A stretch of 53,537 nt of DNA. Origin: Bacteriovoracaceae bacterium (GTDB taxonomy: Bacteria > Bdellovibrionota > UBA1018). Below the pieces are notes generated by a model, which saw only the letters and a list, made by a program, of their open reading frames with translations, was not told where the DNA came from and did no database searches. The stretch lies in assembly GCA_947463705.1 (NCBI GenBank), contig CANHSO010000001.1, positions 1-53,537 on the forward strand, read 5' to 3'. A program made the position numbers and the translations under genes. This document shows positions 95 through 37,256 of this stretch, piece by piece. The first letter of the stretch is position 1. Each line of letters begins with the position of its first letter.

Positions 95-3000
95 ATGATC
101 CCAAGATCGAACCCACCTCAATTTGTAACCTCCGCCCTGACTGGCTTCATCACGTTGTGTCTGAGTGGATGCTATGTAGGCGGAGGGGTGACAAACACAC
201 CGAGCCCCTGGCTCGGGGCACCGAAGTTGGTGACTCCTGTGGTGCAGCCGTATTACTCCAACGGTGACGATCTTGAAATTTCAGGGATGTGCGCTAATGA
301 TCACACCATTGTTCTAGCTGGAGATGCGAGCCTATCTCAGACGTGCACTCACTCCACGTTCGAGTTTAGGGTCCACAAGACGGTAGATCGAACTTATGCA
401 TTTAATATTCATCAGATCAATCCCAATCAAGATCTTTCGCCATCGATTTTGGTCCTTTGGGAAAGAAAAACGAGCATTGCAGCTCCATCCATTTTAGTGC
501 CTGCGACACAGCCTTACTTTTCAGATGAGTCGAGTTTAACGATTTCAGGCAGGTGCGAAGCAGGGGCACGAGTGCAGCTCTCAGGCACGCCTCCCACGGT
601 TCAAACGTGCGACACGCAATCTCATTTTGAGTTTACAGTTTCACAGTCAGCTCCCGGTGATTATTCGTTTAACGTGACTCAAACCGATTTGGCTGGCAAT
701 ACGGCCCAAAGCTCATTCACTTGGACCAAGGCGACTCTCAGCGTATCGCCCAGTTCGGTCACCCTTGTGGCTGGAAATTCACAGGTTTTCACTGCGAGGG
801 GAGGGGCAAATTCCTACACCTGGAGCCTGGGATCGAACCCGTCTGGCGGGAGTGGGGAAGCAGCAGGCCAACTCAATTATCAGTATACTTATACAGCGGG
901 GACGCTCGCTTCTCCCTCTCCGATCCCCGATGTGATTGAACTCAGGGACACGAAGGGGTCGGTCCTCTCGATTCCGGTTTTAGTGCGCGCTGCAGCAGCA
1001 GATCATTTAATTCAAGTCTCCAGCAGTCCTTCGCCTCAGCCCGTAGGTAGCCTCTTAACCCCAGCCCCTCAGGTGCGCGTCGTGGATCGCTACGGCAACG
1101 GGGTGGAGGGGATCCCCCTTCTCTTCAGCATTCCCCGCGGTGACGCTCAACTGATCAGTGCGGCAACCCAACTCTCGGACGGCTCAGGCTACGCACAGGT
1201 TAACGTCAGACTAGGGCAATCCGCCACCTCGAGCAAACTTTTGGTGCGGCGACTCGGTGGCGATTTACCCGCTCTAGCCACTGGCAGTAAAAAATCCATC
1301 GAGCTCACGCTCCAGAGTAGCGCTTCAAATAGCGGAGCATTCGGCGCGGTGTTTAAATTACTGATATCACCGACTCAACTGATATCACCGACTCAATGGA
1401 TCTTTGCCGACCTCCAGGGAAGCGGGCATGCCGATGATTTGATCGTCGGATACTTAGGGGGCTTTACAGCTTTACTGAATCATTCACATGGGATTTATCA
1501 GAGTAATCCGACAGGACAGCCGTTCCCTTGCTCTTGGCTCTATTCATTTAGAGATAAGATTATGGGGACTGGCTCATTGACGGCCTCTCCAGACCAGAAT
1601 GATCTCGTAATTACTGATCCAAACTCAGGCCAAGTCTGGCTTGCTGGGCACCAAACCCCAACCCCACCCGAGGTCTGTCCATTTGCAACGCCCTCACCGA
1701 TTTACTCACCCTCTGGAGGGACCCCGTCTTTCTCTGGGGTCGTTGGGGTCACGCCCTCGGTGCTCAAGTCGCCAGGTCCATCCGCTGGTCAAGATATCTT
1801 GTTACTCAGCAGTGACGGCGATGCCAGCCCTGGCACCTTAAGAGTACTTCATCAAGATTCGGGGTCATCAGACTGGTCGCTGAATCAGACGATCCCAGTC
1901 GGAAACAATCCCAGTCACTTCAGCGTAGGAGACATCAATGGGGATGGATTGCAGGATGTTCTGGTATCAAACGTCGGTGACTCCAGCGTGAGCGTGTTAC
2001 GACTCAATGCGGAAAATGGCAACCTTGAGCTTGATCCAGATATCCCTCCCCCCTCGGTTGATTTCTCCGATCTCGTTGGGATTGCTCTGGGTAATTGGTT
2101 TGGCTTACCCCCACTCGACCTAGCTATGACCAGCTTTTCTGCAGGCCAAATTCTAGTTTATCCGGGTCAAGGCACTGATGAATTTGGGACAAACCACTCA
2201 ACTCTTTCATTAGGAGCCAATGCCATTCGGATTGCTCAACTCGACGCTAACCACGATGGTCAGCATGACTTGCTCGCCATGAGAGACGATCATTCCATCG
2301 AGTGGATCCCTGGACGCGGGGGCGGAAAGTTTGGCTTCAAGAATCAACTCGACTCTGGGGCTCAAATCATTGCGGCCGTCCCTGCCTATCTGGGAGCCGA
2401 AGGTCGGTTGGATGTGATTTTGGGGAGCACCGGATCGGGAACGAGTTCGCTTCAAGTCCTCAGAAATTTGGGGGATGGGATTTTTGCGTCACCCTCTCCA
2501 CTCGGACTCGGAGGAGGCACTCTCAAGGCGATCGCGGTGGCTGATTTTAATCAGGATTCTAAAACAGATAGTGCTGTTGCATTAACGAGCGGACCTAACG
2601 GTGTTTTAAGCATTATTTCCGGCCAAGGGGACGGAACTTTTAGTCCTACACCCCTGGCCAGCTTTACAATCTCGAACGCAAGTCAGATTTCTTCCATCGT
2701 CGTTGGGGATTTTAATCAAGATGGATACCCAGACTTAGCGATTGCAGACCAAGCCTCTGAGCAGATTTATATCCATCTTAATTCGACTTCAGGAGGTGTG
2801 ACGTCATTTGTTCCGAGTTCAATCTCATCTTATTCGACCGCTGGAGATCCAGGCTCATTGGTGGTCACCGATTTAAATGGGGATTTGATATCGGATTTGC
2901 TGTTTTTTGAGTCCTCTGAGGACGATGATGGGAACTTGAGAGGTGGCGTTGGGGTTTTAATTGGCCAAGGCGACGGAACTTTTCAGACTCTCGTCCACAA

Positions 3001-3487
3001 TTGGGCAAGTGAAAACACGCCAGTGGGGATCGTTGCAGGGGACATGAGTGGCGACGGTCAAACGGATGTGGCGCTTCTCGAACAGGATGGAGATCAAAAC
3101 TGCCAAGTCAGGCTTTTAAGAGGGAACGGCTCTGCGAGCTTAGTTTCTACCCCTCAAGGTCCGTGGCCAGCTGGTGTGTCGTGCACATCGATGAAGCTCG
3201 CTGACTTAAATGGGGATCACCTGGCCGATTTAATTGTGACCAATGGATTTGATCCATTTGCTGAAAATGCTCCCGGTTCTTACACGATTCTACAGGGAGA
3301 CCGGAGCCCGGCTGGATACGTTAATGCTCCGAAGATTTTTTCTCCTTCCATCTCCATCACTCTGCCAAACCGGGATTCAACTCAATTCGATCTGGTTTTG
3401 GTCGGCGATTACAATCAAGATGGTGCAAGCGATTTGCTGATGATCGATAAGGCCAACCGGAGTATGGAAGTGTTTCCGGGACAGTAA
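95..3487 (+). CDS. Large surface lipoprotein with bacterial Ig-like (Big_1/Big_2-type) domains and multiple FG-GAP/VCBS repeats
   Basis: 1130-aa ORF with GGAGG 86-90 upstream of the ATG. It has a lipobox-like N-terminus (LTGFITLCLSGC). An invasin-type Ig segment reads PQVRVVDRYGNGVEGIPLLFS. At least 7 FG-GAP motifs are visible (VGDINGDGLQDVLV, VGDFNQDGYPDLAI, LADLNGDHLADLIV, VGDYNQDGASDLLM and others). Confidence 0.85.
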   Translation: MIPRSNPPQFVTSALTGFITLCLSGCYVGGGVTNTPSPWLGAPKLVTPVVQPYYSNGDDLEISGMCANDHTIVLAGDASLSQTCTHSTFEFRVHKTVDRTYAFNIHQINPNQDLSPSILVLWERKTSIAAPSILVPATQPYFSDESSLTISGRCEAGARVQLSGTPPTVQTCDTQSHFEFTVSQSAPGDYSFNVTQTDLAGNTAQSSFTWTKATLSVSPSSVTLVAGNSQVFTARGGANSYTWSLGSNPSGGSGEAAGQLNYQYTYTAGTLASPSPIPDVIELRDTKGSVLSIPVLVRAAAADHLIQVSSSPSPQPVGSLLTPAPQVRVVDRYGNGVEGIPLLFSIPRGDAQLISAATQLSDGSGYAQVNVRLGQSATSSKLLVRRLGGDLPALATGSKKSIELTLQSSASNSGAFGAVFKLLISPTQLISPTQWIFADLQGSGHADDLIVGYLGGFTALLNHSHGIYQSNPTGQPFPCSWLYSFRDKIMGTGSLTASPDQNDLVITDPNSGQVWLAGHQTPTPPEVCPFATPSPIYSPSGGTPSFSGVVGVTPSVLKSPGPSAGQDILLLSSDGDASPGTLRVLHQDSGSSDWSLNQTIPVGNNPSHFSVGDINGDGLQDVLVSNVGDSSVSVLRLNAENGNLELDPDIPPPSVDFSDLVGIALGNWFGLPPLDLAMTSFSAGQILVYPGQGTDEFGTNHSTLSLGANAIRIAQLDANHDGQHDLLAMRDDHSIEWIPGRGGGKFGFKNQLDSGAQIIAAVPAYLGAEGRLDVILGSTGSGTSSLQVLRNLGDGIFASPSPLGLGGGTLKAIAVADFNQDSKTDSAVALTSGPNGVLSIISGQGDGTFSPTPLASFTISNASQISSIVVGDFNQDGYPDLAIADQASEQIYIHLNSTSGGVTSFVPSSISSYSTAGDPGSLVVTDLNGDLISDLLFFESSEDDDGNLRGGVGVLIGQGDGTFQTLVHNWASENTPVGIVAGDMSGDGQTDVALLEQDGDQNCQVRLLRGNGSASLVSTPQGPWPAGVSCTSMKLADLNGDHLADLIVTNGFDPFAENAPGSYTILQGDRSPAGYVNAPKIFSPSISITLPNRDSTQFDLVLVGDYNQDGASDLLMIDKANRSMEVFPGQ

Positions 3488-4139: not shown

Positions 4140-6024
4140 TTTGCTCGAAGTCTCCCGAATCAGGCACGCCGGATGTGAGTGTCTCACTCTCATCTGTTTC
4201 TTGAAAGACCTGTTCAAAATCAATGGCCTTTTGTTGAATCATCGCCTCAAGCCGTTTCAAAAATTGAGTCATGAGTCGATTTTTCTCGAGAGCGTTCGTT
4301 CGATCTGTTCTCGAGAGTTCATCATTCACCACCTCGGCGGTCATTTGCGGAGCAAGCCCAAGGATCCGATCTTTGAGTTCAGGGCGCAGCCTGAGGTAGA
4401 CGGTCAGCTCATCCAGATTGGCGCGAGAAATGAACAGAGAAAGGGGCTGGTCCTTCCAAGAATCCAAAAATGAAAGGGAAGGGGCTTTACGCTTAAACTG
4501 CTCCAACGCTTCGCCCGAAAGACCAACAAAGAGAACCACTTCCTCAACGGGAGTGAGGGCCTCACGAAGTCGCTCGAGTCCCATCTCGAGGGAGATGGCG
4601 CCCGAGCCACGCCCTCCTTGCATTTGGCTTTTAATCTTCAGATCCGACGATCGAAGTTCATCCAAGGGCACTTCGCTCATCTGAGCGGCCGAGTGAACTA
4701 GGGCCCGCTTCTGATCTAGAGTGAGCGATTTGAGATACGAGGCTCTTAAGTCTTTCGGCATATAAAGGGAGACGAGAGTCTGCAGTTTTGGATTTTGTTC
4801 GATGAGAACACTTTTCACCATTCTGAGATTCATCGCGCCTAAGTATCCAAATGGGCGGTCGAGCGCAGTTGGGCCTAGGTTAATCAGAGACAAAAGATCC
4901 CAGTAGATCTTTTTGAGGAGGGCCTCTCGCTCCTCCAGTTTCACATCAGGCATTCGGGCAAAAACCTCAGTCAGATCTTGGAGGGCATCAGCAGGGATCG
5001 GGAGTCTCCCCATTTCCTTACCCACAGCCTCAGCATAAAGAGCTACCTTGAGTTTACCTTCTTCACCCGCTGCGTACCACGAGCGTAAGATGGGTTCGCT
5101 CACCTTCCAGTGTTTGACGGCAAGATCGTTAATGCGTCGCTCGAGACTGAGAACTTCAGATTGAAGCTGTAGGCGTTGATCCGACTCAGCGGAGCCTAAC
5201 TTTTCATCTTCCGTTTCAACTCTGTTTTGACTGCCACCCGGATTCAGTCCGCCAGAGGAATCTAAAACTCGGAGTTCCTGCGCCTTTTCAGCCGTACCCG
5301 TTGAGGTTGACCGAGAGGCAAGAAGTTTCCAAATCAAAACTCCTAGAATCATCGCGCAGGCAATCAGAAATTGCCCAATGAGGTCTTGAAAGTCGGCAAT
5401 TCGATCTAGAAGCGTCTTAGGCTCAGCAGGAGGAGCAGGGACTGGAGAGGGGGACTGGATGAATGAAACGATCCCCTCACCCATTTTGCCGACCTCGCTC
5501 GTGAGGCGGCGCTTGAGCCAATCCTCAGTCTTTGCCTTGACGTCAGGGGCAAGGGTACGCTTCAGTCCAACGGCTACTGCAATTTTTTTTAGTCGATAGG
5601 ATTTTAGAAATGCTCGAAATTGATCGGGATCTTTCTGCTCGGCTGCATACCTTTTTATTTCCTGATCCAGGTTGAGATTGCCAATCAAAAGATCCAAAGG
5701 GAGTTGAGGGCTGGGTTTTGGCTCCGACTGAAAGTCAGCAGAAACCTCGCCCAAGTCGAGATGAGCCGATAAAGTGAATGAATCACGATCGATTTGAGTG
5801 GCTAGTTCTTGGGTCAGTCTCCGGACTACCAGATCTTCCAGAATGACCTTTGCTCCAAGACTTTCTGGGGTGAGCAAATTGATAGAGCTCAAATCAGATT
5901 TCTTTACTGAGATGCCGCTCTTTTTTGTCACTGATTTTTTTGGGGCTGCGCTCACAGGTTGAACGACTAATCCGACCGAGAGGGCGAGAAGTATTCCAAA
6001 AATGATCCTATGAATGGAGCTCAA
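4129..6024 (-). CDS. Bitopic membrane protein of unknown function with a coiled coil and C-terminal helical repeats (tentatively FliG/MgtE-N-like)
   Basis: 631-aa ORF with an N-terminal signal/TM segment (IIFGILLALSVGLVVQPVSA) and a second TM segment (FLIACAMILGVLIWKLL). A coiled-coil segment is followed by two repeats of the LDELxxxDLxxxL helical type. It overlaps the upstream gene by 4 nt. Confidence 0.6.
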   Translation of the reverse strand: MSSIHRIIFGILLALSVGLVVQPVSAAPKKSVTKKSGISVKKSDLSSINLLTPESLGAKVILEDLVVRRLTQELATQIDRDSFTLSAHLDLGEVSADFQSEPKPSPQLPLDLLIGNLNLDQEIKRYAAEQKDPDQFRAFLKSYRLKKIAVAVGLKRTLAPDVKAKTEDWLKRRLTSEVGKMGEGIVSFIQSPSPVPAPPAEPKTLLDRIADFQDLIGQFLIACAMILGVLIWKLLASRSTSTGTAEKAQELRVLDSSGGLNPGGSQNRVETEDEKLGSAESDQRLQLQSEVLSLERRINDLAVKHWKVSEPILRSWYAAGEEGKLKVALYAEAVGKEMGRLPIPADALQDLTEVFARMPDVKLEEREALLKKIYWDLLSLINLGPTALDRPFGYLGAMNLRMVKSVLIEQNPKLQTLVSLYMPKDLRASYLKSLTLDQKRALVHSAAQMSEVPLDELRSSDLKIKSQMQGGRGSGAISLEMGLERLREALTPVEEVVLFVGLSGEALEQFKRKAPSLSFLDSWKDQPLSLFISRANLDELTVYLRLRPELKDRILGLAPQMTAEVVNDELSRTDRTNALEKNRLMTQFLKRLEAMIQQKAIDFEQVFQETDESETLTSGVPDSGDFEQNAS

Positions 6025-7364: not shown

Positions 7365-7505
7365 AGTTGCTCCTTAGGTCCTGAAATCCTGCTTAATAGC
7401 TGACAAGACCAATTTGATCAACTTATCGGCAAGTTCGAAACAAAATAAACAAAAATCTGCAATTAATCCGATGACCCAAAATTAAATTAAGTTTATGTTT
7501 AAAAT

Positions 7506-8828
7506 ATGAAGCAGATGGGCTTAGGAGAAAAAAAATGGTTTATTCTACGGGATGACACCCAAGAAGGCCCCCTCAGTTCTGATGACATTCTAAAAAACAT
7601 GGGAGATGGAACTCTTCTCCCCTCGGATTACGCCTGGCATCAGGAAATGGAAAACTGGGTGCAGATCGAATCCATCAAAAACTTTGACCTTTCTCCTGCC
7701 CGAGCGAACTTCCCTAGATCCTTCTCACAGCCCAAGGTCATGCGCCCAGATTCGCCCCGTCCCCAGCTGAGCGACCTTCCCGAGCAAGCTCGTCGAGTCA
7801 AAGCCATTCGAAGGAAGGCCAGATTAAAAAGCGCCCTGGGAGTGATTAGCATTCTCACTTGGGCTGCATTACTGAGTTGGGAGGCCTATCATCATACCGA
7901 TGGCAATCAGCGACGCACTGCAATTGAGCAGGCCGAGGGATTGAGTCCATCCGACCGAGAGACTCTACTGAATCAGTCTCTCCAACCTTTGAGGGAGCAC
8001 CCTCCCTCCGCAGCGATTGCAATTCTTCACCCTGAAAGCCTGGGTTTTGAAATCCTCATCAGCAGCAATCTCCCTGACCATGCCACACTAGAACTCCAAT
8101 TAGAGGGGGTGCAAGAAACCTTACTCGGGGCTCCGTTTTTCTCACAACGGACTTCTATTTCATTTCAAAAGGGTCTAGCCAAAGTCCGCGTCCATCAGCT
8201 TGCTCAAAGCGGATCCATTCCCCGTGGAGAGTACAGAATTCAAGTTTCACTTCCCAATACGAAGCAACCTCTCGCACTGATGCAACCCGCGAAAACTTAC
8301 TTTCTGGGGGGCGTCAGAAACCAGGACTATCTCAATGAGCTAGCAGTCTATCGAAACAGCCTTAAGGCCCAGGCACAAGCTGAGCTCGTTGAGTTAAATG
8401 AATTTTGCTCCGTCCTTGAGGACCAACTGAAACAAACCTCTGACGAGTTTGGAAGGGTTTTACTCCCCCTAAAGTCTGGGGATGAAAAACCACTCAAGCA
8501 TTGGAGCAAATTCCACAAAGATTGGATTGCCTTTGCGACTCGGCTCGAGCCCTCATTTCAAAAATGGACAGCTGATTGGCTCAAGTCGCATGCTCTCTTT
8601 GGAAAACTCTATCACCTCGCAGCTGAAGCCGGAAAAACGGTGTCGAGTATCCATGAAATGCAGGACCATTACCTCAATTTACCATCCACTCACCCTGATA
8701 CCGAGCTCAGAATTCTAAAAAGCGCCTCCTTGGCTCAAAGCATGCTCCTCTCGCTCAAAGTCAAAATCCAGTTAGCTGAACAGCTACCCAAGGGCTCCGA
8801 TGGGGTGCCAAACGCCCCCAGCCTCTAA
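7506..8828 (+). CDS. GYF_2 (DUF4339) domain membrane protein
   Basis: 440 aa. The N-terminus (WFILRDDTQEGPLSSDDILKNMGDGTLLPSDYAWHQEMENWVQIESI) matches the bacterial GYF_2 pattern. One TM segment is visible (ALGVISILTWAALLSW), followed by a domain of about 300 aa. Confidence 0.7.
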   Translation: MKQMGLGEKKWFILRDDTQEGPLSSDDILKNMGDGTLLPSDYAWHQEMENWVQIESIKNFDLSPARANFPRSFSQPKVMRPDSPRPQLSDLPEQARRVKAIRRKARLKSALGVISILTWAALLSWEAYHHTDGNQRRTAIEQAEGLSPSDRETLLNQSLQPLREHPPSAAIAILHPESLGFEILISSNLPDHATLELQLEGVQETLLGAPFFSQRTSISFQKGLAKVRVHQLAQSGSIPRGEYRIQVSLPNTKQPLALMQPAKTYFLGGVRNQDYLNELAVYRNSLKAQAQAELVELNEFCSVLEDQLKQTSDEFGRVLLPLKSGDEKPLKHWSKFHKDWIAFATRLEPSFQKWTADWLKSHALFGKLYHLAAEAGKTVSSIHEMQDHYLNLPSTHPDTELRILKSASLAQSMLLSLKVKIQLAEQLPKGSDGVPNAPSL

Positions 8829-9940
8829 AAACGGTAACCTAATCGAAGGTCAAAGAGCCGGGCTTGAAGGAGTGTGTTTTGAGTAGGATTAACTTTAACG
8901 TCTGAGATCGATGCTTCTAGATCCAGCGCGTGATTTCTGGCAGTTGGAATTCGGCCCCCGAGACTGAGGTTTACACCATACTGATCAAAGCCGAATACTG
9001 ACTTTGAAAGAGGTTGAAACCTTGCGGCTGCGATGAGAGCTAGATCCTGTTTTATAGAGAAAATCGTTGAGATGCCAAGTTCGGGAGTGAGCAAATTGGC
9101 GAAACCAAAAGGGGCCCCGTTGGAGAGCATCGTGAGATAGCTTGCGCCTAAAGTGAGTCTAATTTTGGATGAGTTCATGGATTCAGGCAGCAGGCGATAG
9201 GTCGCCGCCAGTTTCGCACCAATGATCTGAGGGCCCGCTTGGATGGGTTGTGAATTCAATGTAAGAACTGTGGAGAGGAGCTGAAAATCGAGACCCAAGG
9301 CAGATTCCCAACTCGGGGTTGCATAATCGATCCTGACTACGCCTGTGGTGGAGCGAAAGTCTCCATAGCTGGACTGATGAAAGAAAAGACTCGCGATTCC
9401 TACCGATATTCGAGCTGTACCCCAGGAGTTGGGGCGAATCGTCTCGAGAGAAATCGGGTTCAGAATCATAATTCTCTCTTGCTCAATGGTGCCGCTAGCA
9501 CCCTTGGCAATCAAGGTGAGTTGGTTGGTGGTCGAGGTAAGATGAACAGTGACTCGAAATTCACTTGGGTCATCGAGTTTTCCCAAGATTGACTCCCCAT
9601 GGAAATAAAGGCTCCAGCCTGGCCGCGAGTAATGTCCTCGAACTTCAATCACTGACTGAGAAGGATTGCCGGGAGTTGTAATCAGTACTACAGGAATATG
9701 ATTCTCAGAAAAACTCAAGTATTTGATTTGCTTACTGAGTGTCGTGGGTCTCACAATTTCTGCAGACCACTTGGCCTTAGCGATCCTGAGTGTAGTGGGT
9801 GCAGGTGAGCTGGGAGCCATGGGTACAGAGTCGGCCTCAGTCCGGACCGGGAAAAGTGATAAGAAAAGAATAAACAGAACCAGAAAAGCGAACGGAATAA
9901 ATGGATACCAGCAATATCTCAGGCGCTTCATGTGGGGCAC
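8825..9940 (-). CDS. Putative outer-membrane beta-barrel protein
   Basis: 371 aa with an N-terminal hydrophobic signal. The C-terminal half has beta-strand-rich alternating patterns and ends ..LRLGYRF, with the terminal Phe typical of outer-membrane proteins. Confidence 0.55.
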   Translation of the reverse strand: MPHMKRLRYCWYPFIPFAFLVLFILFLSLFPVRTEADSVPMAPSSPAPTTLRIAKAKWSAEIVRPTTLSKQIKYLSFSENHIPVVLITTPGNPSQSVIEVRGHYSRPGWSLYFHGESILGKLDDPSEFRVTVHLTSTTNQLTLIAKGASGTIEQERIMILNPISLETIRPNSWGTARISVGIASLFFHQSSYGDFRSTTGVVRIDYATPSWESALGLDFQLLSTVLTLNSQPIQAGPQIIGAKLAATYRLLPESMNSSKIRLTLGASYLTMLSNGAPFGFANLLTPELGISTIFSIKQDLALIAAARFQPLSKSVFGFDQYGVNLSLGGRIPTARNHALDLEASISDVKVNPTQNTLLQARLFDLRLGYRF

Positions 9941-35761: not shown

Positions 35762-36619
35762 ATGGAACTAGCGACCAGTGAGGTCAAAAGTCACATCCAT
35801 CTGATCAGAGGCTTGCACGTTATGATGGATAGTGATCTTGCAGTCTTGTTTCAGACCAAAACAAAAGCGCTCAATCAAACTGTGAGTCGAAACAATGAGC
35901 GATTTCCAGAAGACTTTTCATTCCCTTTGACTCGTGAAGAATACGAAACCTTAAGGTCACAAATTGTGACCTTAAGAAACTTGGCCCATGGGCAACATCG
36001 AAAGTATCTACCTCGGGTTTTTACTGAACACGCGGTTCTTATATTGTCGAGCATCTTGAACACCGATCGAGCAATTCAAGTAAGTATTGCTTCCGCACGG
36101 GCCTTTACGCAGCTTCGCAGTCAAAAGGACTCGAGTAATCATGTGCACAGCTTGCAAGTGAATGCACTGCTTGGCAAAATTGATAAAATCGATTTAAAGC
36201 TGGAGCATACCATCAGCGAATTGCGGGTCTTGACCAAGCAATCCAAGGAACCGATTAACCAAGCCACTCCTCAGATATCAGAAATTGCTTATTGTAAAGG
36301 TGGCCACTCCGATGAGCACCAGGTTAAAAGGATCTATTCCATCCAATCAGCCGTTGCCAAAAAATTCGGGATAAATGCATCGGACTTGAGCAGTGCAAAG
36401 CGAGAGCAAAGGATTGTTCTTCCGCGGCAAATCACCATCTATCTCATCAGAAAGCATCTAGGAATCAGCTTCAAAGAAATTGGGCAAGTATTTGGAGGTC
36501 GGAATCACGCCACACTCATCCACGCTGTTGAGCGGATCTCCACCAAAATAAAGTTGAATCAGGCAATTGGTTCTACTGTTGTCGAGGTCGAGAGGTCGCT
36601 TGGTTTCGAGTCGAATTAA
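35762..36619 (+). CDS. Fusion protein: N-terminal ORF6N (KilA-N/Bro-related) DNA-binding domain plus C-terminal DnaA domain IV (Bac_DnaA_C) HTH
   Basis: The N-terminus (IHLIRGLHVMMDSDLAVLFQTKTKALNQTVSRNNERFPEDFSFPLT..RKYLPRVFTEHAVLILSSIL) fits the ORF6N pattern. The C-terminus (IQSAVAKKFGINASDLSSAKREQRIVLPRQITIYLIRKHLGISFKEIGQVFGGRNHATLIHAVERI) fits the DnaA domain IV pattern (RQIAMYL..S...IG..FGGRDHTTV.HA..KI). I prefer ATG 35762 with GAAGGAG upstream over the TTG at 35729 in the track. Confidence 0.75.
   Translation: MELATSEVKSHIHLIRGLHVMMDSDLAVLFQTKTKALNQTVSRNNERFPEDFSFPLTREEYETLRSQIVTLRNLAHGQHRKYLPRVFTEHAVLILSSILNTDRAIQVSIASARAFTQLRSQKDSSNHVHSLQVNALLGKIDKIDLKLEHTISELRVLTKQSKEPINQATPQISEIAYCKGGHSDEHQVKRIYSIQSAVAKKFGINASDLSSAKREQRIVLPRQITIYLIRKHLGISFKEIGQVFGGRNHATLIHAVERISTKIKLNQAIGSTVVEVERSLGFESN
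35950..35976. repeat. Intragenic copy of the 27-nt palindrome core CTTAAGGTCACAAATTGTGACCTTAAG
   Basis: It is an exact match to 35669-35695, the core of the 41-nt palindrome. It lies within the ORF6N-domain coding region, in the codons for LRSQIVTLR. Confidence 0.85.
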
Positions 36620-36644: not shown

Positions 36645-37094
36645 TTACTGAATCACAGAATCTAGATCAGAATCTGAGTTAGCATTTTCCTCGAACTGAG
36701 AGAGGTCTGCTCGATCTGCAATGATGATGTGGAAAACATATTCGACCAAAAGATCGTCTAAATCGATGTTGGCCGGAGCATTAAAACTCCGCTTGTAATG
36801 AACAATGATCTCCCAAAGAGGAATGTGGGTGATTTCATCTTCGCCCTCAACGATATCGATCACTTCAAAAAATTCTTGATGATCTGGAATCGTTCCCTGC
36901 AGGAGGACAAACTCTGGATGCTCGTCATTTCGCAGAGAGACAATGTCTTCTTCTCCAATGACAGCAGCTTGTACTGGCACGCTCCCCCAAGCAACACACG
37001 GCATAAAAAACGAAGCCAAACAAAGAATTTTCCAAAAATTTTTCACAGGATGAGGTGTCCTCGGTTGATTATGACTGATGCGCTTCGACGGCAA
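36645..37094 (-). CDS. Small exported protein of unknown function (intact paralog of the 35130..35533 fragment)
   Basis: It has a signal peptide (FWKILCLASFFMPCVAWGSVPVQA) and an acidic C-terminus. The start is uncertain: TTG 37094 in the track, or GTG 37046, which would give MKNFWKIL... Confidence 0.55.
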   Translation of the reverse strand: MPSKRISHNQPRTPHPVKNFWKILCLASFFMPCVAWGSVPVQAAVIGEEDIVSLRNDEHPEFVLLQGTIPDHQEFFEVIDIVEGEDEITHIPLWEIIVHYKRSFNAPANIDLDDLLVEYVFHIIIADRADLSQFEENANSDSDLDSVIQ

Positions 37095-37166: not shown

Positions 37167-37256
37167 TGGCGGAGAGAGAGGGATTCGAACCCCCGGTAAG
37201 GTTGCCCCTACGTCGGTTTTCAAAACCGATGCATTCGACCACTCTGCCATCTCTCC
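37167..37256 (-). tRNA. tRNA-Ser (anticodon TGA)
   Basis: The reverse complement is GGAGAGATGGCAGAGTGGTCGAATGCATCGGTTTTGAAAACCGACGTAGGGGCAACCTTACCGGGGGTTCGAATCCCTCTCTCTCCGCCA. It has anticodon loop TTTGAAA, a long variable arm, T-loop TTCGAAT and an encoded CCA. Confidence 0.95.

Follow-up and report, generated by a model that had tools for sequence, protein, structure and literature searches.

We analyzed a 53,537-nt stretch of DNA (here referred to as "the window") from a Bacteriovoracaceae bacterium (contig CANHSO010000001.1 of assembly GCA_947463705.1) and focused on a gene whose product joins an N-terminal ORF6N domain to domain IV, the DNA-binding domain of the replication initiator DnaA. 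Genes for related fusion proteins adjoin the chromosomal origin in several uncultured relatives, and codons of the ORF6N domain form a palindrome that recurs in ORF6N genes of many phyla. The fusion gene, its parts, and the two palindromes of the window are as follows (aa, amino acids; pLDDT, predicted local distance difference test).

35762 to 36619, plus strand: ORF6N-helix-linker-DnaA domain IV gene, 285 aa (Pfam and AlphaFold2)
35792 to 36055, plus strand: ORF6N domain, aa 11 to 98 (Pfam PF10543, E 6.6e-26)
36065 to 36241, plus strand: single long helix, aa 102 to 160 (59 residues), a candidate dimerizing coiled coil (AlphaFold2 DSSP, high pLDDT)
36242 to 36304, plus strand: disordered linker, aa 161 to 181 (pLDDT of <50 at aa 167 to 180)
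36305 to 36601, plus strand: DnaA domain IV, aa 182 to 280 (Pfam PF08299 match at aa 193 to 259, positions 36338 to 36538; superposition on 1J1V)
35661 to 35703, no strand: perfect 43-bp palindrome centered 80 nt 5' of the ATG; its central 27 bp (35669 to 35695) are the same as the intragenic copy
35950 to 35976, no strand: 27-bp palindrome CTTAAGGTCACAAATTGTGACCTTAAG within the gene (the intragenic copy); it codes for LRSQIVTLR in the ORF6N domain

The fusion gene starts at an ATG with GGAG 8 nt 5' of it. A model-made reading of the window from sequence alone (the sequence-only reading) had described an ORF6N domain at the N terminus and a DnaA domain IV at the C terminus, and profile searches support both, with the limits of the gene, 35762 to 36619, exactly as that reading had them. 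PF10543 scores 90.9 bits against a gathering score of 27.8, spanning profile positions 2 to 86 of 86, and Bac_DnaA_C (PF08299) scores 86.8 bits (E 9.6e-25) against 31.5; both scores are about three times the gathering score of the model. The domain IV signature quoted in the sequence-only reading is present in the window, and the absence of an AAA+ initiator module, which it had also claimed, is borne out. NCBIfam DnaA models align with the window protein through their last ~100 positions only, and the DnaA equivalog TIGR00362 reaches 93.5 bits against a cutoff of 343.9 over model positions 339 to 436 only. Because these models align through their last ~100 positions only and fall far under their cutoffs, the AAA+ module and domain I are absent; the window protein is not a DnaA initiator and has no ATPase or oligomerization module.

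AlphaFold2, run on an alignment of 51 family sequences, gave a model (mean pLDDT of 90.1) with four parts: an ORF6N head of mixed alpha/beta structure (aa 1 to 100), an uninterrupted helix (aa 102 to 160), the linker, whose length varies among members in the family alignment, and a C-terminal domain of five helices (aa 182 to 280). Superposed with Foldseek on the Escherichia coli DnaA domain IV-DnaA box complex 1J1V, the C-terminal domain gives a TMt score of 0.93 and a root mean square deviation of 0.9 Å, and it also matches the equivalent domains of Mycobacterium tuberculosis and Bacillus subtilis DnaA. The ORF6N head resembled no solved structure in the PDB (Foldseek). In a viral structure library (BFVD), it resembles "KilA-N DNA-binding" proteins, and the tail resembles many DnaA_C-only phage proteins of 92 to 190 aa.

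The sequence-only reading had called the fusion unusual, and a survey of the architecture shows that it is not unique. From a HMMER search run exhaustively against 1.84 billion cluster representatives (50% identity), the best 150 were taken; at least 93 clusters of the 149 best besides the query's own carry both domains (family profiles), with a median length of 282 aa. The best relatives align end to end over query residues 1 to 280, at 36 to 44% identity and in the same domain order, and both Pfam models are matched by 51/51 aligned family members. Most members are singletons from short metagenome contigs, and only three carry taxonomic labels: two metagenome-assembled genomes (MAGs) of Bdellovibrionales and one of Bdellovibrionia. 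Proteins at least 90% identical to the window protein occur in four assemblies.

The family became apparent solely through the exhaustive search. Word-indexed searches with the whole protein or a family profile returned ORF6N-only proteins almost exclusively, with 2 to 5 fusions; one with the whole window protein found itself and one 36%-identical fusion, and one with the C-terminal half alone found no matches. A genome scan keyed on ORF6N peptides found one fusion (L005), and a scan of viral contigs keyed in the same way found none among the 80 loci kept. We also considered PRQ[IV][AT][MI]YL[IV]RK as a fusion-specific motif and rejected it: when metagenome contigs were searched with a degenerate DNA pattern for it, 117/120 loci had DnaA_C without ORF6N, most of them at canonical DnaA length (435 to 550 aa), and 3/120 were fusions. 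The suggestion that the architecture is uncharacterized stands, in that the literature searched held no treatment of it and mentioned ORF6N itself in passing only; of the NCBI product names found, only "ORF6N domain-containing protein" refers to a domain, and the others seen are "hypothetical protein." We found no description of the architecture, its linkage to the origin, or the ORF6N palindrome in the literature and databases searched.

Fourteen distinct family loci were recovered, at which origins were called from clusters of DnaA boxes and from dnaN-recF-gyrB synteny. The chromosomal origin adjoins the fusion gene in 4 of the 14. At one locus from a Bdellovibrionales MAG (L005), recF and dnaN on the minus strand are followed by 11 DnaA boxes in 215 nt, 9 of them perfect TTATCCACA, and then by the fusion gene, which is transcribed away from the boxes. 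At another (L089), a 914-aa gene without a Pfam record precedes recF-dnaN, after which come 16 boxes TTATCCACC and the fusion gene. On a third contig (P0152), the order is gyrA-fabH-gyrB-recF-dnaN, a 1.1-kb gap, and the fusion gene, with the origin called by gene order alone. On the fourth (L177), the fusion gene is directed at six perfect TTATCCACA boxes that extend to the contig end, an orientation to the boxes that is the usual one for dnaA. Because dnaA holds the corresponding position in Bdellovibrio bacteriovorus (PMC5124646), the fusion gene stands, by gene order, in the place of dnaA in these uncultured relatives. The four origin-adjacent proteins are ~40% identical and fall on separate branches of a quick family tree. 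These arrangements establish a physical link between the fusion family and the chromosomal origin. The dominant box variant differs by locus, being TTATCCACC (16 copies) at positions 5330 to 5777 of L089 and perfect TTATCCACA at positions 7455 to 7669 of L005 and 7221 to 7320 of L177.

Residues that read the DnaA box were compared through an ungapped alignment to 1J1V, in which the E. coli residue number equals the window residue plus 185. In E. coli DnaA, the helix at residues 434 to 451 reads TnCACA and R399 reads TTA (PMC5742627). The window protein retains R214 (E. coli R399), H249 (H434), and H254 (H439), and R214 and R222 (R407) are invariant throughout the fusion family. The recognition helix carries the signature DHTT..H in 42 family members and DHST..H in 11; the NHAT..H of the window copy was seen twice. 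By this signature, no family member is less DnaA-like than the window copy.

The second element of interest, the ORF6N palindrome, is a 27-nt inverted repeat centered on the codon after the Q of LRSQ, which we scored as present at ≥10 of 13 arm pairs. Our survey covered 110 ORF6N domains at ~90 loci from many bacterial phyla, Candidate Phyla Radiation bacteria, and archaea. The same codons are palindromic at ≥10/13 arm positions in 93/100 distinct ORF6N segments and at ≥12 in 73/100, and the palindrome was also found in phage ORF6N genes. The intragenic copy of the window has 13/13 arm pairs. When the same peptides were resampled with synonymous codons, the mean was 5.0 pairs versus 10.8 observed, and ≥11 pairs arose in 0.13%. 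The arms covary (TCACAA/TTGTGA, TCGCAA/TTGCGA, TGCCAA/TTGGCA, TTCCAA/TTGGAA, and ATCACAA/TTGTGAT), and the protein changes with them, the paired residues being S..V, S..A, C..G, F..G, and T/I. Across 92 aligned segments, 95.3% of cells are paired versus 81.9% after shuffling, and there are 170 double-sided arm changes versus 41 in shuffles (0/500 shuffles); both comparisons are biased upward, as the segments were preselected for ≥10/13 pairs. We rejected a strand-specific RNA hairpin, given that wobble-type (G.U) mismatches show no sense/antisense asymmetry (21 versus 16 between strands). Neither the window nor any of 11 palindrome-rich loci had an Rfam match at gathering score, and the Bacteroides-1, rivX, and miRNA hairpin models, all far under their cutoffs, were likewise rejected. 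The core sequence of the palindrome was not found in the literature searched.

Copies of the palindrome also lie outside ORF6N domains, with 43 in 1.07 Mb versus none in shuffled sequence, and 42 of the 43 have an ORF6N domain within ~500 nt. Of the 30 stricter copies (≥12/13 arm pairs), 22 are upstream and 8 downstream, several of them near -60 to -125; in the window, the two palindromes are at -80 and +201 relative to the fusion gene. Flanking copies are modestly nearer to the copy of their own gene than to those of other loci (4.7 versus 6.4 differences; 29/2,000 permutations). This clustering and own-copy likeness fit cognate binding sites. Three copies lie 5' of the closest relative of the window protein (L085), and at four loci (L086, L091, L175, and L176) the intragenic copy has been lost and the flanking palindromes have been kept. 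On these sequence comparisons, the local palindrome belongs to a general element of ORF6N genes that spans phyla, and it is not a DnaA-box-like site. Its identity as a DnaA box is unsupported: the half-site shares (G)TCACA with TnCACA and has nothing of TTA.

Some further features of palindromes merit record. As single-stranded DNA (ssDNA), the 43-bp palindrome of the window has a folding energy of -22 kcal/mol (z = -11). No sigma-70 consensus promoter was found 5' of the fusion gene, and the terminator-like matches there are the palindromes themselves. Positions 35619 to 35696 of the window, which lead into the upstream palindrome, show weak similarity to the part of the fusion gene that encodes DFSFP...LRSQIVTLR (tblastn E 0.002); duplication of a gene fragment, with later lengthening of the arms to 21 nt, may have given rise to the upstream palindrome. 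In a Blastocatellia MAG (L007, positions 2890 to 3310), ~10 tandem units of ~42 nt lie directly 5' of an ORF6N-only gene, each unit consisting of the 27-nt ORF6N palindrome and a spacer GATGAAACAAGAG, with every palindrome individually compensated.

Around the fusion gene, the window holds the following features.

34490 to 35091, plus strand: vapB-vapC toxin-antitoxin pair (Pfam VapB_antitoxin and PIN; syntenic in a sister MAG)
32901 to 34034, plus strand: AAA_14/DUF4143 ATPase (PADLOC PDC-S01-like, E 6e-54; missing here in the sister MAG)
29937 to 31244, plus strand: another AAA_14/DUF4143 ATPase, a neighbor in the defense-island-like stretch
37167 to 37256, minus strand: tRNA-Ser(UGA), with its 3' end towards the fusion gene
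35134 to 35257, no strand: left copy of a 124-nt direct repeat (88% identical), a fragment of the open reading frame (ORF) at 36645 to 37094
36792 to 36915, no strand: right copy of the 124-nt direct repeat, within the ORF at 36645 to 37094 (minus strand)

A sister MAG (contig CANCQK010000003.1, 266 kb) carries an orthologue of the window gene at ≥90% identity. Its layout matches that of the window, with vapBC, a 79-aa ORF, the fusion gene, a small ORF, and serS, and the orthologue is ~52 kb from the origin-adjacent paralogue L005. Because the layout is shared and L005 is so placed in the sister MAG, the window gene is a stable, dispersed chromosomal paralogue of the origin-adjacent copy; adjacency to the origin and dnaN fails for the window copy itself. 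The genes 5' of vapBC are different in the sister MAG, and the window neighbors also include an FGE-sulfatase fragment. The copies of the 124-nt repeat bracket the fusion gene, and the ORF that holds the right copy encodes a signal-peptide-like protein of 149 aa. The left copy is a fragment of this ORF, and arrival of the fusion gene by insertion or duplication within the ORF is therefore suggested. GC content is slightly lower across the fusion gene. No copies of the tRNA-Ser 3' end were found in the window, and no integrase or replication genes were found at the locus.

We propose, at roughly even chances, that the fusion protein is a chromosomally encoded regulator with two DNA-binding heads, linked to DnaA boxes and oriC and thus a candidate origin regulator. 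The long helix would dimerize the protein, and the domain IV head would dock on DnaA boxes of the TTATCCACA type. Lacking domains I to III, the protein would occupy boxes but form no DnaA filament and load no helicase. Since a box-occupying protein of this kind could not form a filament, it would modulate, and most simply antagonize, DnaA at oriC or at promoters under DnaA control. The 27-bp ORF6N palindrome, in turn, would be the target of the ORF6N head, and the copies beside the genes, together with those usually present within them, would serve autoregulation or anchoring; from the placement of these sites, the fusion protein is probably autoregulated. The present role of the window paralogue may be narrower, because its domain IV signature has drifted and the only candidate sites nearby are the two palindromes. 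The sequence-only reading had envisaged DnaA-box binding and interference with replication. This gains support at the level of the family, with four members at the origin by dnaN and three of them beside box clusters, and loses it for the window copy, with its NHAT signature and no nearby boxes.

A broader joint reading, which we consider possible but doubtful, holds that the family is a dedicated mimic of the DNA-binding domain of DnaA that controls origin firing and that the ORF6N palindrome is a self-encoded operator or hairpin. In its first part, a Bdellovibrio-like lineage would have evolved the family next to oriC, where it took the position of dnaA. In its second, a cis element would be written into the codons of the most conserved motif of ORF6N genes of bacteria, archaea, and phages, with the satellite copies near the gene as its cognate sites, an arrangement of a kind not yet described.

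Several observations weigh against a role at the origin. The other 10 of the 14 family loci either have ordinary chromosomal genes as neighbors or are on contigs of insufficient length for a call, and origin adjacency could be historical rather than functional if the family descends from a resident dnaA. The window copy has N248 for D433, A250 for T435, and K238 for P423. E. coli DnaA with T435M or R399A is defective in box binding (PMC5742627), and the T435M defect in particular speaks against box reading by the window copy. Because its recognition helix is noncanonical (N-H-A-T), its domain IV may have a diverged site or bind weakly, and no DnaA-box cluster was found in the 53.5-kb window, which has at most two boxes per 500 nt. 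The surroundings of the gene look like a variable, defense-island-like stretch beside tRNA-Ser. Finally, covariation of the palindrome arms is not predicted by a simple duplex operator for a dimer. That covariation lends itself to a reading, confined to the cis element, in which the palindromes are either hairpins or cruciforms (in ssDNA or RNA) or self-perpetuating quasi-palindromes maintained as perfect by hairpin-templated repair, and not duplex operators; the protein would then recognize palindrome structure or be unrelated to the palindromes. We regard this as a serious contender, somewhat short of an even chance. The arms covary freely at positions 4, 5, 7, 8, 10, and 13 (the 170 double-sided changes versus 41 in shuffled sequence), neighboring array copies differ with each perfect by itself, and some extragenic copies have 21- to 24-nt arms of unrelated sequence. 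It is countered by the lack of G.U asymmetry between sense and antisense (21 versus 16), and thus of a strand-specific RNA sign, and by the lack of Rfam matches, as well as by the concentration of copies within ~500 nt of ORF6N genes, mostly upstream (22 versus 8), where they are somewhat nearer to the copy of their own gene than to others.

The neighborhood bears more directly on the idea that the protein acts in anti-phage defense or regulates it, as a protein of the PDC-S05 (ORF6N/RhuM) type whose ORF6N head senses or binds invader DNA and whose domain IV blocks phage, plasmid, or host origins. Residues 3 to 163 of the window protein match PADLOC PDC-S05 (E 4.9e-41), and the gene has vapBC and two DUF4143 ATPases as neighbors, of which the one tested in PADLOC matches PDC-S01; both facts speak against an origin regulator as well. 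The stretch 5' of the fusion gene differs between the sister genomes and adjoins a tRNA, and one PDC-S05 representative lowers T7/T5/T4 plating by 10- to 1,000-fold (preprint 10.1101/2024.09.26.614923). That assayed protein, however, is RhuM-type, with another architecture (10.1101/2024.09.26.614923), the PDC models span the ORF6N part only and leave the C-terminal half foreign to them, four family members sit at the chromosomal origin amid housekeeping genes, a setting atypical of defense islands, and no fusion occurs among the 80 viral-contig loci kept from the scan; we judge a defense function unlikely. If the fusion were instead a plain transcription factor that regulates itself, derived by domestication from a phage antirepressor-like gene and with DnaA_C as a generic helix-turn-helix without a replication link, this would account for the PHROGs annotation of ORF6N proteins as anti-repressors, for a window copy with palindromes at -80 and +201, no DnaA boxes nearby, and a degenerate DnaA signature, and for the small DnaA_C-only proteins common in phages. 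This too appears improbable to us, considering that the family retains the box-reading residues (R399 invariant, DHTT dominant) and is repeatedly placed against DnaA-box clusters and that the window gene lies in conserved chromosomal synteny. Least probable by far is the proposal, also raised in the sequence-only reading, that the gene is left over from a defunct integrated replicon, whose origin its product would have bound as initiator. Such a past is compatible with the tRNA-Ser 3' end next to the fusion gene, with the 124-nt direct repeat around it, and with its slightly reduced GC; the layout is shared by the sister genome, however, the locus has no integrase, helicase, or primase and no iterons besides the two palindromes, the tRNA 3' end is without a repeat in the window, and the relatives are at chromosomal origins and not at plasmid or phage origins, all of which argues against a mobile replicon and makes this reading very unlikely.

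Comparison with known systems helps to place the candidate origin regulator. The C-terminal 100 aa of the fusion protein share the fold of DnaA (PF08299; E. coli 1J1V) at 33 to 38% identity and retain the minor-groove arginine R399, H434, and H439; unlike DnaA, the protein lacks domains I to III and with them AAA+, DnaB or DiaA contacts, and the filament. ORF6N-only proteins (PF10543; PHROG "anti-repressor"; PDC-S05) are 45 to 60% identical to it over the N-terminal 100 to 125 aa, and their genes have the intragenic palindrome at LRSQxxT and satellite palindromes nearby, as fusion genes do. They differ in being ~170 to 190 aa long with a short helical tail or in carrying Rha or other C-terminal modules, and DnaA_C was seen in none. 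PHROG anti-repressor families align with the window protein in its ORF6N part alone, and the protein covers only the N-terminal half of the PHROG 4792 antirepressor (positions 14 to 131 of 268); with this partial profile match and its chromosomal setting, the window gene does not qualify as a phage antirepressor.

Phage DnaA_C-only proteins (BFVD "Chromosomal replication initiator, DnaA C-terminal," 92 to 190 aa; PHROG 30669) likewise have a stand-alone domain IV without AAA+. They are viral and lack the ORF6N head and the long helix, in contrast to the chromosomal fusion, and are also uncharacterized. Bdellovibrionia loci, too, have DnaA_C-only ORFs beside fusion genes. At one (L091, positions 8889 to 9194), a separate 101-aa DnaA_C-only gene lies 2.5 kb off the fusion gene. 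At L005, what looks like a degraded second copy occupies positions 7945 to 8228, with the oriC boxes on one side and the intact fusion gene on the other; after an ORF6N palindrome (LRSQIVTSK), a 70-aa remnant of DnaA_C is encoded in a different frame at 8016 to 8228 (Pfam E 5e-18).

Among the proteins that bind origins in competition with DnaA are the regulators Spo0A, CtrA, MtrA, AdpA, and HP1021. The logic proposed here is the same, with a noninitiator DNA-binding protein on oriC modulating initiation. Those regulators rely on response-regulator DNA-binding domains and sites of their own, whereas the fusion protein has the box-reading domain of DnaA itself and would mimic DnaA directly.

In predatory Bdellovibrio-like bacteria, it is an open question how replication is kept off in the attack phase and how the origin fires repeatedly during filamentous growth. 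The box-reading domain of DnaA without its ATPase, encoded against oriC, is a concrete candidate regulator for that question and, if the proposal is true, would be a natural example of a domain-IV-only DnaA competitor. For ORF6N more widely, a nucleic acid constraint shapes the "conserved motif" of a domain widespread in phages and defense islands, PDC-S05 candidates included. The palindrome offers a handle on what ORF6N proteins bind, and it carries a warning that part of ORF6N sequence conservation does not reflect selection at the protein level.

Two further observations concern the genes themselves. One contig (L176) has an ORF6N-only gene at 7817 to 8377, 2 kb 3' of its fusion gene, and both architectures therefore coexist within one genome. 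Two fusion genes (L001, 914 to 1004, and L283, 1103 to 1192) have in-frame 63-nt duplications within the ORF6N domain that create a second palindrome and add ~21 aa in a low-confidence loop after the helix at residues 58 to 73.

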